A program made the position numbers and the translations under genes. This document shows positions 1,320 to 61,835 of a DNA stretch of 64,000 bases, one piece after another. Origin of the DNA: Candidatus Binatia bacterium (GTDB lineage Bacteria; Desulfobacterota; Binatia; Bin18). Location: positions 32,001 through 96,000 of the forward strand of contig CAXXHG010000046.1 in assembly GCA_963666315.2 (NCBI GenBank). Reading direction: 5' to 3'. The notes beneath the pieces are model-generated. The model did no database searches. It had not been told where the DNA came from and was given only the letters and a program-made list of their open reading frames with translations. Within the stretch, counting starts at the first letter, position 1, and each line of letters opens with the position of its first letter.

Positions 1320-2225
1320 ATGAAGGCGGTTTCTCATTCTTCGCCCTCTTCGCCTGAATCCGACACCATAGCCTCCCTCTTGACCGCAGCACAGGCGGAT
1401 CTTGCCTCACGTCATGTCAGCACGCCTCGCTTAGACGCAGAAGTCCTCCTCAGCCATATACTGCAGACGGATCGTACGTCTTTGTACACGCGTCTCCAAA
1501 GACCTCTTTCCGCCGCTCACAAGAGACAGTTCACGGAACTCATTGCGCGGCGGAAACAGCGCGAACCGCTTGCCTATATCACCGGCAGCCGAGAATTTTG
1601 GTCCTTGGAATTCCGCGTTGATACGCACGTTTTAATTCCACGCCCGGAAACTGAAATTGTCGTACACACAGCCCTGCGCCTCCTCCACAACGCGGTAATA
1701 GCAACGCCGGCTATTCTGGACCTGGGAACAGGCAGCGGCTGTATTGGTATTGCCCTCGCCACGGAACTTCCTCAGGCAGCTCTGTGGGCGCTGGATATCG
1801 AAGATGAGGCGCTAGCGCTGGCACGCCAGAATGCCCGCCACCATGCTGTTGACGAACGTATGACCTTCTGTCAGGGAGATCTATTCGCCCCTATCTCGCA
1901 CCTGACTGAGCGCTTTCACCTCATTGTCACCAATCCCCCCTATATTGACCGCGAGACCCTCGGCACGCTCCAGCCTGAAGTCGGCCACTGGGAGCCCCAG
2001 CGTGCTTTAGACGGCGGGCAAGACGGTCTCGATTTTTATCGGCGCCTGCTGTACGATAGTCCGAACTATCTTCGACCCGGAGGATGGCTCGTCATGGAGA
2101 TCGGGCACGGCCAAAGGGGCGCCGTCCTCCACCTAGCACAGGCCCAATGCCGCCTTTCCATCCAGAGCTGTGTTCAAGACTACGCCGGACATGATCGGGT
2201 TGTGGTATTCCAACCAGCAGCCTAA
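1320..2225 (+). CDS. prmC: Release factor glutamine methyltransferase
   Basis: LIPRPETE, LDLGTGSGCI and NPPY motifs. Confidence 0.96.
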   Translation: MKAVSHSSPSSPESDTIASLLTAAQADLASRHVSTPRLDAEVLLSHILQTDRTSLYTRLQRPLSAAHKRQFTELIARRKQREPLAYITGSREFWSLEFRVDTHVLIPRPETEIVVHTALRLLHNAVIATPAILDLGTGSGCIGIALATELPQAALWALDIEDEALALARQNARHHAVDERMTFCQGDLFAPISHLTERFHLIVTNPPYIDRETLGTLQPEVGHWEPQRALDGGQDGLDFYRRLLYDSPNYLRPGGWLVMEIGHGQRGAVLHLAQAQCRLSIQSCVQDYAGHDRVVVFQPAA

Positions 2226-2262
2226 AAAAGATGTACACAAAAGCGGACACGGATGCATATAA

Positions 2263-3531
2263 ATGGATAAAATTGTTCTCCAAGGCGGTATTCCCCTTCA
2301 CGGCGCGGTAACCGTAAGCGGGGCAAAAAATGCGGCCTTGCCGTTACTCTTCGCCTCTCTTTTAACACAAGACGAATGCACCCTACGGCGCATACCGCGA
2401 CTCGTTGATATTCAGACGGCGCTGCGCTTGCTGAAGGAGCTCGGGGTGCAAACCGACTGGCTCGGCACCAACGAGGTCGCACTGCATGCCCGAGGGGTGC
2501 GGCAAATCGAAGCACCCTACGATTTGGTCAAAACCATGCGCGCCTCGTTCTTAGTGCTCGGGCCGCTCTTGGCCCGCTTTGGCCGCGCCCGGGTCTCAAC
2601 ACCCGGAGGCTGTGCCATCGGCACCCGTCCGGTCAATATTCACCTCAGCGGCCTGCAACAACTCGGCGCATCTATTCATATTCGACAAGGCTATGTCGAG
2701 GCCGAAGCCAGTCGGCTCAAGGGAGCGGACATCACCTTCGACTTTCCCTCTGTTGGCGCAACGGAGAATCTGATGATGGCGGCCACGTTGGCCGCCGGGA
2801 CAACCGTGCTCAACAATGTGGCCCGCGAGCCGGAAATCGAAGATCTGGCAGACATGCTCGTCGCTATGGGTGCTCGCATTCACGGTGCCGGCAGTCGAAC
2901 CATCGTGATTGATGGTGTGGAAGGACTGCACGGCGTGACCCACACCGTTATCCCGGATCGCGTTGAGGCTGGCACCTTTCTGATTGCTGGAGCCATCACC
3001 TCGGGCAACGTGCTAGTCCGTGGCGCGCGCGCTGACCACCTCCAGAGCTTTTTGCAAGCACTGCAACAGGCGGGAGTACAAGTCCACGAAGAAACGGCAG
3101 GCATCCGCGTACTCGGCAATGGTCGACCAACCGGAGTCCAGATTACGACCCAACCCTATCCCGGTTTTCCGACTGATCTCCAGGCGCAGATGATGGCGCT
3201 CTTAGCCTTGGGCCAGCAGCAAAGTGTGCTGACTGAAACGATCTTCGAGAATCGGTTTATGCACGCCCAAGAACTCGTACGTTTGGGCGCAGATATTTAT
3301 GTTCAGGGGCATACGGCCAGCGTCAAGGGTGTCGCCTTTCTGAGTGGAGCGCCGGTCATGGCAACCGATCTGCGCGCCAGCGTTTCACTGATTTTGGCCG
3401 GGCTCGCTGCGCGCGGAGAAACCGAGATTGGCCGCATTTATCATCTTGATCGTGGTTACGAGCAGATAGAGGCCAAGCTTTCACAACTGGGGGCGAGAAT
3501 CCAACGCCAGAAAAGTACGTCACAGCAATGA
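2263..3531 (+). CDS. murA: UDP-N-acetylglucosamine 1-carboxyvinyltransferase
   Basis: [19 protein letters not shown] (catalytic Cys), [19 protein letters not shown]. Confidence 0.98.
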
Positions 3532-4868
3532 CTACTGCGCGCAGATCAACACCCGCTCTTGTTCCTCTTCTAACCACAACGGACCCTGCCTGCCAGCGTC
3601 ATCTCAAGAAGCTCCTCGCTCGCGGAGAGAGTGCGAGCGCGGAAGTCGAAGGGACAGTCCGCTCGATTCTGCATGACGTGCAGAAACGGGGCGACCACGC
3701 ACTCCTTACTTTTACCAAAAAGTTTGATCGGGTAGCGCTCACCGCGTCGCAGCTGGGTGTGCCCCAAGCGGCGATGCAGGCGGCACTCAAAACCCTGCCC
3801 GTACCGATCAGAAAGGCGCTGCGGACAGCAGCCCAACGTATTCGACGTTTTCACCACAAGCAGCGCCTGTCCTCCTGGATGTATCGAGATGACCTGGGGG
3901 TCACCCTGGGCCAAAAAATCACGCCGCTCGAACGCGTCGGCGTATACGTTCCTGGAGGGACAGCGTCGTATCCATCCTCAGTTCTGATGAACGTCATTCC
4001 AGCCAAGGTCGCTGGGGTAAAAGAGATTATTATTGTCTCTCCACCGTCACCCCAGGGAGCCAACCCCACCCTCCTAGCTGCGGCTCATATTGCCGGCGCG
4101 GATGCGTTCTTCAAGGTAGGCGGGGCACAAGCAGTGGCCGCCCTGGCGTATGGCACCAGAACCATTCCGCGCGTAGACAAAATTGTCGGTCCCGGCAATA
4201 TATATGTAGCGACGGCCAAGCGACTCGTCTTCGGACAGGTGGATATCGACATGATCGCCGGGCCCAGCGAGGTCTTGGTGATTGCCGACCAGAGCGCAAC
4301 GCCGACCTATGTCGCGGCCGATATGCTCTCGCAGGCCGAGCATGATCCGCTGGCCGCAGCCGTATGCCTGACGACGTCCCAGCGCGTTGGCAAAGCCGTT
4401 GTCCGGGCGCTCACTGGGCAGCTCGCCACGCTAACACGACACAACATCGCAGCGACATCCCTGCGTCGCTTCGGGGCGGTGATTGTCGCCCGGAGTCGGT
4501 CGGAGGTGGTCGATCTGGCCAACGCCATTGCTCCGGAACACCTCGAGCTGGCAGTCGAAAATCCGCGCAGCTGGCTCAAAGATATTCGGAACGCAGGCGC
4601 AATCTTTCTGGGTCATCTCTCAACTGAACCGTTTGGAGATTATATCGCCGGCCCAAACCACGTCTTACCCACAGGCGGAACGGCCCGATTTTCTTCCCCA
4701 CTCGGGGTGTATGATTTTCTGAAACGGACGAGTGTGATAGAGGCCTCGTCGCGGGCGCTTGCGACCCTGGGTCCCGAAGTTATTCGGCTGGCCGAGCTTG
4801 AGGGACTTGAGGCCCACGCCCGCGCCGTACAGTATCGTTTGAACGGAGGTAGGCATGGCCGTACGTAA
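3528..4868 (+). CDS. hisD: Histidinol dehydrogenase
   Basis: [45 protein letters not shown]. Confidence 0.98.
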
Positions 4869-17026: not shown

Positions 17027-17525
17027 TCACGAAGCAGCCAGCGCACTATTTGTCGTGCGTTTGCCGTCCTTGGTCATATGACAGGTGCAGTCACGGCCAT
17101 ATAGACCGTAGCGATGTAAGATGGATTTTATCTTTTCTGGGATGCGATCAAGTAGTGTGCCTTTTAAGCTAATACTAAACGTATTGACGCTAATAGATGC
17201 GCTCAGAGATTCGACTTCGTGCCACCAGCCGCGCGGTATATACAACATCTGCCCGGAGTTGAGGTGAGAGGTTTGCATACGAACCTCGGCAAAACGAGGA
17301 AATTTCTGCGGATCGTATCGTCGTGAGTCGATTTGGCTCAACTTTGACCCATAGTCGAACTTCGTGCTGGGATACATGCAGGCTGACTACTCGGGCGAAA
17401 CGAGCCGAACAAATTTTTGACCGCAAACCTGGGCTAATAGACCATCCGCGTAGTCGAAGTGGAAACCAGTAAAGGTTCCTTTCGGTCCGATCCAGCCCAG
17501 CATAATGTTTTTCCATTTAGGCTGA
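17027..17525 (-). pseudogene. JmjC/cupin-8 oxygenase C-terminal fragment with in-frame TAG
   Basis: WIGPKGTFTGFHFD...GQK..RLVSPE*SACMYP...GQMLYIPRGWWHEVESL reads in one frame across TAG 17389-17387. Confidence 0.8.
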
Positions 17526-18004
17526 GTGAGGACCTCAAGATAGGCTTCGACCAGCTGCGCCAGGCGGTATTCTTTCGAGTAGGTCTCAGCCTCAGCATCA
17601 TAAAATATGGGATAATCCTGCAGGTGTTGTTCCGCAACGATTTGTATCGCTAAATGCCGACTGCGCAGAATTTCATACTGGGTCTCATAGTAATCGTGGG
17701 CATCAGTTCCCAGTGACTCAGACAAGACCTTGCGGATGTCCAAGATCGCGGGCGACCGTTCTTCAATCAGCAGGGTGGCAGAAGCGGTATAGACGGGCGT
17801 CATGAAAAAGGTCCCGATGCCCACACACAGCACCACAACGGCAAAAAAGACGGCGATCTGCCATTTTCGTTTCGTCAGCACCTGCCAGTAGCGTTGGAGG
17901 TTCAGGCTATTGTCGCCCGGCCGGAACTGATCGAATCCCGCCGGCCCTCCATCCGTTAGGACAAGAGTCGATGGGGCCGCATAGGGAGTGATGTCTCTCA
18001 CCAT
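17526..18004 (-). pseudogene. GumC/Wzc polysaccharide co-polymerase, N-terminal fragment fused to JmjC
   Basis: YWQVL.KRKW + TM + TPVYTASATLLIE...YYETQYEILRSR, then an abrupt switch to JmjC sequence. Junction position is approximate. Confidence 0.8.
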
Positions 18005-18013
18005 CTTTCTCCT

Positions 18014-19200
18014 CTATGGAACCACAGAAGCGCCGATACTGAGCACGCGCGTCGCAAAGTCATACAGCCCGTAGAAAATGAGTTTTCCGGTGGAAGAGGG
18101 GACCTCAATCACATCACCCGCTTGGACCGGCATATCGGACGCCTCACCACGCAGAATTCTTTCGAGGTCAGGCGACAGCACCTGGGTTTGCCCCTCACGG
18201 TCCGTACGAATCACTTTCACGATCCAGTTATCAGCGACAAATCGGGGCCCTCCGGCAGCAGCAATCGCACCAATAATCGTCAGCCCTGGGGTGATGGGAT
18301 AGGTGCCAGGCTGCTTGAGCCAGCCTTCCACCAGTACGCCACCAGCATCAGGCGCGATAATGACGTCTTGCGGGCGAACGGGGAGGGCAAGATAGATTTG
18401 ATCGCCGCCTTTGATCAGGTTCTGAACATCGATGATAATGGGCTCCCCGCGTTCCGCCAAAGAGGATGCTCGGAGAGAAGAGGACGTCAGAGGGACGGAG
18501 AACGGGACCGAATTCGCGTGTTGCCCTGCATCCCCCGCCGGCAGAAAATGAATCTGGGCCGCAGCTTTCTCGGTTCGTCCACCTGCCAGGGACAGCACAT
18601 CGAGAATCGTATCTGTCCGGCTGGTGGGGCTATAGAGTCCAGGCTTTTCGACCGCACCGACCACGGCAACTTGTCGGCTGCGATACTCACGCACAGAGAG
18701 GTTCACCTGGGATTATCCATATAGTCCCGTTCGAGCCGACTTCGAATCGCTTCCTTAAGGGTCTTTTCGGTCAGTCCACCGGCCTGCATGATGCCGATGA
18801 ACGGCAAGGAGATCGTGCCTTCTCGGGAGACACGCACAATATGGCCGGTATCAGATTGGCGTTCGAGCTCTACCATGCCCGGTACAGAAATCTCCAATAC
18901 GTCTCCGGGTCCAAGCGGATAATCTGCCGTCATGCTGTCCCCAGCTCGCTGAGCCCATAACTGCGCCAGTCGAGCTTCATCACGCTGAGCATGGCTGCGT
19001 GGGCTGTCCGTGCCCACGGGCGTGGGAGTAGTCGCCGGACTTTGTCTGAGAGACGCAGAGTGAGACCCGGTTGACTGAACGCTGGTCGTGCAGCCAGCTA
19101 CACACAGGATCACACCCACACCGAGAACAGCATGACCAAAAGGCGTCGGGCAGAGGTTCCGAATATGCAAAAAGAGGTTGGAAATTTTATCCATACACAA
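18014..19200 (-). pseudogene. Wza-like polysaccharide export lipoprotein with SLBB domains, frameshifted
   Basis: Lipobox VAGC, DYPLGPGDVL, GTISLPFIG. At about 18709 ATG GAT AAT CCC AGG TGA becomes NPQVNLSVREY if one C is added. Downstream: VAVVGAVEKPG, VLVEGWLKQPG. Confidence 0.85.
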
Positions 19201-58636: not shown

Positions 58637-59659
58637 ATGCCCGCAGCCCATTCACTCCTCAAGCAGCAGCAAACCTTTCCCGCATATATCCGCTACCCCG
58701 TACTGGCCCTCACCTATGTACTGATCAAACCGGTCCTGTGGTTGGTGGACAAGGCCGGCTACTCCGATCGCCTCTGGACGGCGGTCGGATACAAAATGCG
58801 CGCGAAGCTTGTCGAGGGCCACGACTTCGGCGACTACCGCCCTAGCCAACACGATGTGGTGGTGTGTACCTTTCCCAAATGCGGCACAAATTGGACCATG
58901 CAGATTGCCTATCAAATCGCGATGCGGGGTCGGGGAGAGTATGGGCATATTCATGAAGTGATTCCGTGGCCGGATTTTGCCAAGCAAGACTTGGTGGTTC
59001 CCTTATCGGACGATACGGCGCGCCAAGCCGCCCCTACAGGACTGCGCGTGATTAAGACCCATTTGGAGTGGGACCGGGTACCCTACACCGATAAGGCACG
59101 CTATATCTGTGTGATCCGCGACCCTAAAGATGCCTTTGTCTCTAACTACCACTTTATCCGTGATGTGATGCTCGGTCCCCTGATGCCCGCTGTTGCCATA
59201 TGGGTACGACTCTTTTTTTCTGATGCGACTCCTTTTAACTGGTCTGAACACTTGCACGGCTACTGGCAGAACCGTCACCTGCCCAACTTGTTGATCCTGA
59301 CCTTTGAAGAGATGAAAGCAGACCTGCCCATGGTCGTGCGTCATATTGCCGAGTTTATGCGGGTGGAGCTGACGGACGGCGAGTTTGACCTGGTGTGCCA
59401 GAAGAGCACGTTTGCCTATATGAAAGGGATTAACGAAAAATTCGCCCCGCCGGCCTTGAGTCCATGGTCATCGCCCAACAGACAAATGATCCGCAAGGGT
59501 CAAAGCGGAGGATCGTCCGAACTCTTGTCTGCTGAGCTGCAGCGCTTTATCGATACCCAATGTAAAGCCGATCTTCAACGCTTGGAATGTGCCTTCCCCT
59601 ACGGCGAGGCGTGGGAGGACCTGTCCGTTGGCGCAGAGCGCGCCGCCGCCCAAGCGTAA
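58637..59659 (+). CDS. PAPS-dependent sulfotransferase
   Basis: TFPKCGTNW, KTHL, RDPKDAFVS, RKGQSG. Confidence 0.93.
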   Translation: MPAAHSLLKQQQTFPAYIRYPVLALTYVLIKPVLWLVDKAGYSDRLWTAVGYKMRAKLVEGHDFGDYRPSQHDVVVCTFPKCGTNWTMQIAYQIAMRGRGEYGHIHEVIPWPDFAKQDLVVPLSDDTARQAAPTGLRVIKTHLEWDRVPYTDKARYICVIRDPKDAFVSNYHFIRDVMLGPLMPAVAIWVRLFFSDATPFNWSEHLHGYWQNRHLPNLLILTFEEMKADLPMVVRHIAEFMRVELTDGEFDLVCQKSTFAYMKGINEKFAPPALSPWSSPNRQMIRKGQSGGSSELLSAELQRFIDTQCKADLQRLECAFPYGEAWEDLSVGAERAAAQA

Positions 59660-60559
59660 AGCGGTTTACCCAGCCCTCCGCTCGAGCCCAACGCTCCGCT
59701 TTTGCGCAGCGCGCTGACCCTGTCTGCATCGTATCCGAGTTCGGCCAGGACCTCGTCCGTGTGCTCGCCCAGCGGAGGTGCGCGCTGTGGCTGGCGTTTC
59801 GTTTCGCCCTGAAGCCAGATCGGACTGTTGACCACTTCTACCTTGCCTACGGTCTCATGCTCAAAGCCAACAAAGAAGTCGTTGGAACGCATCTGCGCAT
59901 CGTGGGGGGCCTCCTCAGTGCGTCCAACCACACCGAAGGTGATCTGCGCATCGTCCAAAATCTGCTTCCACTGGGCGAGGTCTTTAGTCTCAAAAGCAGC
60001 CTGGATCTCTTGGGCCAGGGCTTGGGCATTGTCAAGCCCTGGGCGGACTTCGGCGAAACGCACATCTTCCAGCCACTCAGGGTAGCCCAGGGCTGTGACG
60101 AAAAGGGGCCAGTCTTTGTCGGGCTGGATCACAGCCAGGCTTGTCTATCTCGTCCCCGTTTTCTCCGTCGCCCGTGACCTGGGCATAGACCAGGCGCTCA
60201 TTTACCGGCGCCAGGTCCTCGTAGCGTATCTTCAGCCGTTCCAGCACGCGGGGTGGGAAATTGGTCACGAATACGTCCGTTGTGCGGATCAGGTCGAGCA
60301 AGATTTCATGTCCGGCATCAACTTTCATATCAAGAACCATCCCATGCTTGTTACGGTTATCGTGCTGGAACATGTAGTCCAGTTCGCTGGCTGGGAAGGG
60401 CGTTACCTTATGCGCATAGCGGTACGGATCTCCAATGCCGGGGCTCTCGATCTTAATCACCTCTGCGCCGAAATCGGACATCACGGTGGTACTCGCCGGA
60501 CCAAAGATATAGGTCGCCATGTCTATCACCTGAATGCCGGACAAGATCCCTTGCGCCAT
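59599..60559 (-). pseudogene. CaiB/BaiF CoA transferase with internal deletion and frameshift
   Basis: The N-part (DFGAEVIKIE, NRNK, DVFVTNF) ends at DKPG near 60137. The C-part (LAVIQPDKDW...APPLGEHTDEVL) resumes in another frame, and the catalytic middle region is missing. Confidence 0.85.
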
Positions 60560-60781
60560 ACGCTCCTCCTGTCATGTGTGGACGGGTCAATGCGGTGACT
60601 TCATCTTTCGTCGGCCTGCGTAGCAAATTCCTGCGCTAGAGTCACGGGTTCAGCTGCGGAATCTTACGGTCGCACACAACTTTCCGAACGCCGAGCACTC
60701 GAATTTGTGGATGGAAAAAGTTACTATGCACCAAGGTGGCGATACGAGTCGCAAGTTTAGAGGGATACAGGAGGGATACAC

Positions 60782-61591
60782 ATGAGCGATTTCGATGCGA
60801 CGCAGCGTGTCCTAGTCAGCTATATAGACAAGTCGCGCGAGTACTACCTGGCACGCGGTCACGCCAATCCCTACCGCTGGGCGACCCATGAGGACACGCC
60901 CTTCGCATCGCTTGTCAAACCGCTCAGCGAGAGCCGGGTCGCCTTGGTCACGACCGCGAGCCTCAGCTCGGAGGATAGTCGTGCGCGGGCAGTGTACGCC
61001 GCTGCCACCCAACCAGCGCCGGAATCCCTGTATACGAACCACCTATCATGGCACAAAGAGGCCACGCACACGCGTGATGTCGAGTCCTTCCTGCCGATTC
61101 ACCGCCTTGAGGAGTACGCGGCTGCCGGTCGCATCGGCAGTCTGTCAGCACGCTTCTACGGCGTCCCAACAGACTTCAGCCAACGTCAGACCGTCTACGC
61201 CGATGCCCCGGCAGTCCTTGATCAGTGCCGCGCCGATGCCGTCGATGCCGTGCTGCTCGTCGCACTCTGACCGGTCTGCCACCAGACCGTGAGTCTGGTC
61301 GCTCGATACCTTGAGGCGAATGGCCTGCCGACCGTCATCCTCGGCTCGGCGCGGGATATCGTCGAGCAATGCGGCGTTGCTCGCTTTGTATTCACAGACT
61401 TTCCCCTGGGTAATCCGTGTGGCAAACCGGATGATGCCGCCATGCAACGAGAGATCGTCGCTATTGCACTCGACCTGCTTGAGACTGCGCGTTATCCGCG
61501 CACTACTGTCCAGACTCCGTTTCAGTGGGACGCAACCGGTGAGTGGCGCGCCACGTATATGGAGCTGCCGTCGGATAATGAGGCCGCGTAA
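60782..61591 (+). CDS. PrdB/GrdB-like reductase selenoprotein, 269 aa, UGA codon 163 predicted as Sec
   Basis: ORFs 60782-61270 and 61289-61591 are in the same frame. Read-through gives DAVLLVAL-U-PVCHQTVSLVARYLEANGLPTV...FPLGNPCG. The N-part has TPF..L.KPLSESRVALVTTA, typical of PrdB. Confidence 0.85.
61271..61299 (+). promoter_or_regulatory. Bacterial SECIS-like hairpin
   Basis: ACCAGAC-CGTGA-GTCTGGT: perfect 7-bp stem starting 11 nt after UGA, with 17 nt between UGA and the loop and GU at loop positions 2-3. Confidence 0.7.
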
Positions 61592-61596
61592 TAGTG

Positions 61597-61652
61597 TTCC
61601 CGTAGGGTGCAGCCTCTGCACCCTTCTGCTTGGTGCGCAGGGCGCACCCTAC
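61597..61652. repeat. GTAG-type REP doublet, copy 2
   Basis: TTCCCGTAGGGTGCAGCCTCTGCACC...GGTGCGCAGGGCGCACCCTAC. Confidence 0.75.
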
Positions 61653-61835
61653 TGTCGCGTCCGAGTCGAAACTGTGCGTTGTGTTGTGACCGATCCTTCC
61701 TTCGACTCTGCTCAGGACAGGCTTCGACAAGCTCAGGGCGAACGGAAAAAGAGGTGGCAGACAAGGTCCCTTCGTGCTGAGCCCCGTCGAAGCATGAACG
61801 GACCGTCATGCACAACTTCAACGTAGACGCGACCC
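61652..61835. mobile_element. Putative MITE with imperfect 26-bp TIRs and TA duplication, containing CTTCGACAAGCTCAG-type palindromes
   Basis: Left TA|CTGTCGCGTCCGAGTCGAAACTGTGC versus right (reverse complement) TA|GGGTCGCGTCTACGTTGAAGTTGTGC: 18 of 26 identical. Confidence 0.55.

Follow-up and report, generated by a model that had tools for sequence, protein, structure and literature searches.

Does a pair of open reading frames parted by a single TGA in the genome of a Candidatus Binatia bacterium encode one selenoprotein, and if so, what would a protein resembling the B subunits of D-proline and glycine reductases do where the partner genes of those reductases are not found? The stretch of DNA analysed here (64,000 nucleotides, hereafter the window) had been read as carrying a hidden, stand-alone and uncharacterised PrdB/GrdB-like selenoprotein gene with a U-x-x-C motif. 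We followed up this original prediction by comparing homologous proteins and loci, by folding the putative SECIS element, and by profile searches of the genome and of a sample of its phylum.

One reading frame with an in-frame UGA

The two listed frames (60782..61270 and 61289..61591) lie in the same phase and together make one frame of 269 codons closed by a TAA stop (61589-61591), of which the TGA at codon 163 is the sole interruption (Table 1). The codon stands in the context LLVAL-U-PVCHQT and yields L-U-P-V-C, exactly as the original prediction had it. A scan for promoters and terminators detected nothing promoter-like, and the two terminator-like sites that it gave both fall within genes.

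Table 1. Features of the PrdB-like locus, in window coordinates
Feature	Position	Strand	Basis
Shine-Dalgarno-like AGGAGGG	60769-60775	+	6 nt upstream of the ATG; read off the sequence
PrdB-like selenoprotein gene with one in-frame UGA, start ATG at 60782	60782-61591	+	TIGR04483 match; alignment with full-length homologues (52-68% identity) continues through the TGA
UGA, almost certainly selenocysteine codon 163	61268-61270	+	Aligned with a nearly invariant Cys; TGA/Cys split among loci
TGC, Cys166, proposed resolving Cys of U-P-V-C	61277-61279	+	Nearly invariant column; role inferred from PrdB/GrdB chemistry
SECIS-type hairpin	61278-61302	+	Folds, covariation, stem kept in all four paralogues
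TGT, Cys213, third conserved Cys, in a nearly invariant F-P-L-G-N-P-C-G loop	61418-61420	+	Homologue alignment

Among the 3,769 database proteins that matched at E≤0.001, the full-length homologues (about 290 aa) read L-C-P-V-C-H-Q-T at this place; the column of the UGA is nearly invariant Cys, with Cys in all 14 full-length homologues aligned, and the alignment stays strong downstream of it. A 91%-identical database entry (P0023) is a stub of 162 residues that ends exactly at the position of the UGA. At the DNA level, at least 549 related loci were confirmed in species-representative genomes, and in the best 80 of these the aligned codon was TGA in 73 and TGC or TGT in seven. The Sec form is thus the majority form in these best 80 and is spread across many phyla, its records being labelled Binatia, Chloroflexota/Dehalococcoidia/Anaerolineae, Ilumatobacter, Blastocatellia and Delta-, Gamma- and Betaproteobacteria. 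Cys-form homologues occur in named Bradyrhizobium strains.

The machinery for selenocysteine insertion was also detected in the genome. Profile searches recovered SelB (378 bits), SelA (593 bits) and SelD (308 bits), all above the curated cut-offs, and Aragorn placed a tRNA-Sec gene (anticodon tca) beside selA. The co-occurrence of SelA with the family has little power as a test because 113 of 121 genomes in the phylum sample have SelA anyway, against 29 of the 29 that hold a relative of the protein. Taken from the alignments and the gene content, the pair of frames is confirmed as one real gene, and the in-frame UGA almost certainly encodes selenocysteine. Two 'hypothetical' ORFs of the Binatia genome would accordingly be annotated as one selenoprotein gene, and its three paralogues need the same correction.

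Two arrangements were observed among the machinery genes. The tRNA-Sec gene lies within about 50 nt after selA on the opposite strand (contig C43, 402598-404077 of this genome, G000). SelD forms the C-terminal part of a 757-aa ORF (contig C28; locus L013, 1393-3663, minus strand), the N-terminal 317 residues of which are a pyridine-nucleotide-disulphide oxidoreductase domain, giving the domain order Pyr_redox_2, AIRS, AIRS_C.

A conserved hairpin downstream of the UGA

A SECIS-like hairpin at the expected spacing formed part of the original prediction, and this held on closer analysis. The hairpin begins 11 nt after the UGA and consists of a 7-bp stem (61281-61287 with 61293-61299) closed by the apical loop CGUGA (61288-61292), with a lower stem of 2 bp (61278-61279 with 61301-61302) below a 1x1 internal loop. 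The minimum-free-energy fold of a 63-nt segment had -23.8 kcal/mol (z = -2.2), and four of 200 shuffled sequences folded as well. Across 24 sequences, 93.1% of the stem cells were paired, against 19-33% when the 3' partner was slid; four of nine pairs changed on both sides, and the covariation score was reached by none of 500 shuffles.

Among the Sec-form loci the hairpin is almost letter-identical, synonymous positions included. At least six of the seven stem pairs were kept in 64 of 69 Sec-form loci, as against two of the seven Cys-form loci (best 80 of at least 549; the count took in 69 of the 73 TGA loci, and the four others, which fell outside the regex count, likewise carry TGA). Five of the seven Cys forms retained at most five pairs, and hence the hairpin has been lost in most of them. 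In a subgroup of loci (L046, L047, L050, L051, L053 and L056) the hairpin is shifted about 6 nt further downstream, and the genome's four paralogues share one hairpin geometry in other letters (CCAGAC/GTCTGG, TCAGTC/GACTGA, GCGTAC/GTACGC). One Cys-form locus (TGT) from a Bradyrhizobium-labelled MAG (L070, 6451-6486) carries all seven SECIS stem pairs, as would be expected of a recent change from Sec to Cys.

When contigs from four metagenome runs were mapped to the locus, their summed depth in the bin 61263-61301 was 744, 453, 40 and 64; most bins elsewhere in the gene had about 0-30, and the bin that follows had up to 83. Loose contig ends fall at 61268 and 61302. From this peak it follows that just the core formed by the UGA and the hairpin is common to many contigs of other organisms, and this is consistent with constraint at the nucleotide level. 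Pieces from RNA-labelled runs cover parts of the gene at 88-95% likeness, for which carry-over of DNA is possible, and this degree of likeness marks them as coming from relatives; among the assembled contigs of the four metagenome runs, the RNA-labelled pieces gave no evidence of expression.

A distant branch of the PrdB/GrdB superfamily

The best match among curated NCBIfam models is PrdB (TIGR04483; E=6e-26), in which residues 41-249 align with profile positions 20-234 of 238. The score of 91.2 bits lies below the equivalog cut-off of 300 bits, and the next models, GrdH, TIGR01918 (39.8 bits against a cut-off of 65.45), GrdB and GrdF, are likewise below theirs. The Pfam model GRDB (PF07355) gave 19.6 bits against a gathering score of 22 and aligned at profile positions 209-345 of 347 only. 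With scores below the cut-offs, the protein belongs to the GrdB/PrdB superfamily as a genuine yet remote relative, and by these profile matches as one that may have a different chemistry; its branch is not represented by any of the curated models searched. Against TIGR04483 the paralogues reach 155, 112 and 124 bits, and the link to the superfamily is sound because the N-terminal pieces of paralogues 2-4 pass Pfam GRDB (59, 45.9 and 33.7 bits).

The three further PrdB-like paralogues lie on contigs C29 (11073-11879, minus strand), C41 (32650-33489, plus strand) and C43 (506557-507720, plus strand). In each, a single TGA stands in the motif U-P-V-C or U-P-L-C and is accompanied by a hairpin that covaries. 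An Amidohydro_2 gene immediately precedes the copies on C41 and C43, and luciferase-like monooxygenases are encoded in their vicinity. The copy on C43 extends about 140 aa further at its C-terminal end, and the one on C29 deviates from the family at its C-terminus, perhaps through a frameshift.

Like the 26-kDa PrdB subunit of clostridial D-proline reductase, the window protein spans nearly the whole PrdB profile, is of similar length and has Sec three residues before Cys. It differs in about 25 extra N-terminal residues with an invariant motif of their own, in its low score against the PrdB model, and in belonging to a genome that has no PrdA match and encodes a haem-copper oxidase and luciferase-like monooxygenases. 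To GrdB, GrdF and GrdH (acting on glycine, sarcosine and betaine; PF07355, TIGR01918) it is homologous in their C-terminal half (profile positions about 210-425); those proteins are about 430 aa long, whereas the window protein has 269 residues and is without the N-terminal half. They also act with partners of the GrdE/GrdI type, GrdA and GrdC/D, unlike the window protein, in whose genome PF09338 and PF04723 were not found.

Most homologues end in a basic C-terminal tail of about 25 residues that is absent from the window gene. Outside the U-x-x-C motif the homologue alignment has about 40 invariant columns, and the invariant polar residues, including H96, D99, R124, Q134, R135, D206 and N211, suggest a defined small-molecule pocket. 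The AlphaFold model (pLDDT 75.7, pTM 0.80) predicts a Rossmann-like alpha/beta domain and places Sec163 between strand 156-160 and helix 164-179, at the N-terminus of the latter. A profile search of the PDB for solved relatives returned one chance match (E=0.78), Foldseek with the predicted model gave nothing at E≤0.001, and VIA-align gave generic LacI/PBP-type and SDR matches only (best Z 10.1).

The novelty implied by the original prediction did not hold: proteins of the PrdB UxxC type have been listed in selenoprotein surveys since 2005, and the gene in the window is a further member of that family. In the available portions of these reports, the Sargasso Sea survey counted 42 Sec and one Cys form and ranked the family third in abundance among selenoproteins (Zhang, Fomenko and Gladyshev 2005, PMC1088965), the GOS survey counted 235 Sec and 110 Cys forms (Zhang and Gladyshev 2008, PMC2398784), and one deltaproteobacterial Olavius symbiont was found to have five PrdB copies with no GrdA or GrdB (Zhang and Gladyshev 2007, PMC1976440). 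In the GOS data, as in the Sargasso Sea, the family ranks among the most abundant. A later marine survey, in its accessible part, gives the PrdB family as 6.4% of selenoprotein genes. The window protein shares with the metagenomic family its PrdB/pfam07355 homology, the UxxC motif and the predominance of Sec forms; members of the survey family are abundant in oxic marine samples, and our marine MAG loci L065, L067 and L075 are of the Sec form. We infer that the two belong to the same branch, having matched them by the tables and descriptions of the surveys. In their available portions the surveys class the family as proline reductase, and the absence of PrdA goes unmentioned (PMC1088965, PMC2398784, PMC1976440). 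The word 'uncharacterised' is nonetheless apt, in that a literature search gave no functional study of the partner-less branch.

The family is large, with Sec in most of the best 80 of the at least 549 loci confirmed, and it occurs in organisms with haem-copper oxidase. Public protein sets either contain it as shortened fragments or label it 'D-proline reductase PrdB' or 'glycine reductase', and the ESM Atlas entry for a Bradyrhizobium homologue carries the automatic name 'Glycine reductase family protein'. The names 'D-proline reductase PrdB' and 'glycine reductase' are probably wrong because PrdA/GrdE was not found in 28 of the 29 sampled genomes that hold the family.

Partner genes and genomic neighbourhood

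As the PrdB and GrdB subunits work with partner proteins, we looked for these in the window, in the genome and across the phylum. Pfam scans found no prdA or grd family among the window ORFs of at least 100 or 110 aa, and no PrdC or proline racemase family among the window ORFs scanned. The earlier statement that the window has no prdA, grd or thioredoxin gene therefore stands for prdA and grd; for thioredoxin it is weaker, as a thioredoxin shorter than 110 aa would escape the scan. In the genome, which is 92% complete, neither PF09338 (PrdA/GrdE) nor PF04723 (GrdA) had a match, the latter in a search without a positive control, since the model also matched none of 14 control genomes. PF09338 likewise matched none of the 14 controls, and its search was repeated on a sample of 121 genomes of the phylum, where it matched strongly in four, and hence the search works. 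A relative of the PrdB-like protein at E≤1e-20 was present in 29 of the 121 genomes, with exactly one TGA in all 36 matches among those listed, and PF09338 was not found in 28 of these 29 genomes (the sole exception being G045) nor in a 100%-complete genome of the same genus. The description of the gene as stand-alone is thus borne out for the window and for the 92%-complete genome, of which the unassembled part could hold a partner gene.

The neighbours had been named correctly. The gene sits between a divergent, split CoA-transferase III gene (the remnant of the original prediction) and a convergent luciferase-like monooxygenase gene, and is flanked by a sulfotransferase and luciferase-like monooxygenases, of which the organism encodes many. 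Clustering of 864 ORFs from 81 loci revealed no neighbour conserved across phyla, sharing being confined to close kin; the convergent luciferase-like monooxygenase, for example, recurs in 13 loci including the window, most of them in Binatia-labelled records. A Pfam scan of 30 neighbours assigned them to families with no relation to one another, so a partner cannot be read from the neighbourhood, and no thioredoxin, glutaredoxin or peroxiredoxin was among them. Within 700 bp of the gene in 80 loci, nine small ORFs have a loose CxxC motif (C, P or G, any residue, C), none of them CPYC or CGPC and none glutaredoxin- or thioredoxin-like. No fusion recurred: the two longer proteins encountered, which carry an NHL repeat and LysR domains respectively, are single cases and probably gene-call artefacts.

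Proposed function and alternatives

By analogy with the characterised superfamily members, the gene is likely to encode a partner-less selenoprotein of the GrdB/PrdB superfamily, 269 residues long, that works as a Sec/Cys reductase without a pyruvoyl subunit or GrdA. On the comparative evidence, UGA163 is almost certainly recoded to selenocysteine by SelB and tRNA-Sec through the intra-coding hairpin 11 nt downstream. The selenolate of Sec163 would then, as in PrdB, be the nucleophile that attacks the bound substrate, and Cys166, by the biochemistry of PrdB and GrdB, would resolve the adduct to form an Se-S bond (selenenylsulfide), which a dithiol such as thioredoxin may re-reduce. The cycle would run with neither a pyruvoyl PrdA/GrdE subunit nor GrdA, for which reason the enzyme would not be a D-proline or glycine reductase; the lack of a pyruvoyl subunit further implies either a substrate that does not need Schiff-base activation or the disulfide of another protein.

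The partly available account of GrdB-type enzymes assigns Sec the role of nucleophile, expelling a leaving group from the carbon adjacent to a carboxylate, lists the partner subunits for betaine (GrdI) and fluoroacetate (FarE) as not being pyruvoyl proproteins, and records a proposed role of the GrdB-like FarB in reducing fluoroacetate (PMC10838667). By the example of the GrdH/GrdI and FarB/FarE systems, onium osmolytes and halo-acids are candidate substrates, and it is a tentative proposal of low confidence that partner-less PrdB-like proteins might be self-sufficient selenolate enzymes acting on such compounds, which would need no pyruvoyl activation, by reductive cleavage of a carbon-heteroatom bond adjacent to a carboxylate. 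If true, a selenoprotein family that ranks among the most abundant in oxic oceans and soils would perform a hitherto unrecognised reductive reaction in aerobes, and its database name 'proline reductase' would be wrong throughout. Were the substrate identified, a major use of selenium in the environment would gain a function.

A thiol/selenol redox carrier, in which U-x-x-C shuttles electrons to a protein such as a peroxiredoxin- or glutaredoxin-type partner encoded elsewhere, is an unlikely reading of the same motif. The UxxC at a helix N-terminus, as placed by the model, would be typical of carriers, and the selenoproteome surveys mark the family, in a footnote to Table 1 of the available portions, as a homologue of thiol-based oxidoreductases. 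However, no Trx, Grx or Prx neighbour was found here or in the 80 loci of the orthologue group (best 80 of at least 549), and the roughly 40 invariant columns outside the motif are more in keeping with a substrate pocket than with a generic carrier. A small-molecule reductase is ranked above the carrier, given the large extent of invariant surface and the fact that no partner for a carrier is linked to the gene.

That the protein is the genuine B subunit of a D-proline (or glycine or betaine) reductase, whose partners are encoded at other sites or within the 8% of the genome that is unassembled, is very improbable. PrdB is the best curated match over nearly its whole profile, with the same UxxC, and homologues bear the database names 'D-proline reductase PrdB' or 'glycine reductase', but the score is less than a third of the equivalog cut-off, PF09338 and PF04723 were missing from the genome search and PF09338 from 28 of the 29 holders and the complete congener. 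The genome also encodes a haem-copper oxidase subunit I, and Cys-form homologues are found in named strains of Bradyrhizobium, an aerobe; both stand against a genuine subunit. It is hardly credible that the TGA is a real stop in a broken gene or between two small genes, even with split genes such as the CoA-transferase III nearby and gene callers ending P0023 at residue 162, given TGA in 73 of the best 80 of at least 549 loci in many phyla, Cys in the rest, conserved in-frame coding after the codon, a covarying hairpin and a complete Sec machinery. The preferred reading is that of a U-x-x-C selenoprotein of the superfamily, as the original prediction held, with the Cys-aligned UGA, the SECIS hairpin and the Sec machinery all pointing to it.

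Split genes and an apparent repeat around the locus

Several nearby genes look broken, and gene decay in the region is possible on their frames. The CoA-transferase family III gene (59599-60559, minus strand) is split into two overlapping frames, of which 60077-60559 matches profile positions 1-142 and 59599-60132 matches 246-366; the gene is intact (403 aa) in the 89%-related locus L022. The split would be a frameshift or real decay, in agreement with the earlier remark on decay stops in this DNA. At 17390-19200 (minus strand) three abutting ORFs carry Poly_export, SLBB and Wzz domains and may be another split gene; Poly_export and SLBB normally occur in one polysaccharide-export protein.

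Just 3' of the selenoprotein gene, the intergenic segment 61692-61750 reached a summed contig depth of 2,205-3,687 in two of the metagenome runs, with many loose contig ends at 61710/61711 and 61744-61746, and looks like a short repeat common to very many contigs. Contig depth was also raised, to 83-223, over a GC-rich palindromic stretch at 61595-61653.
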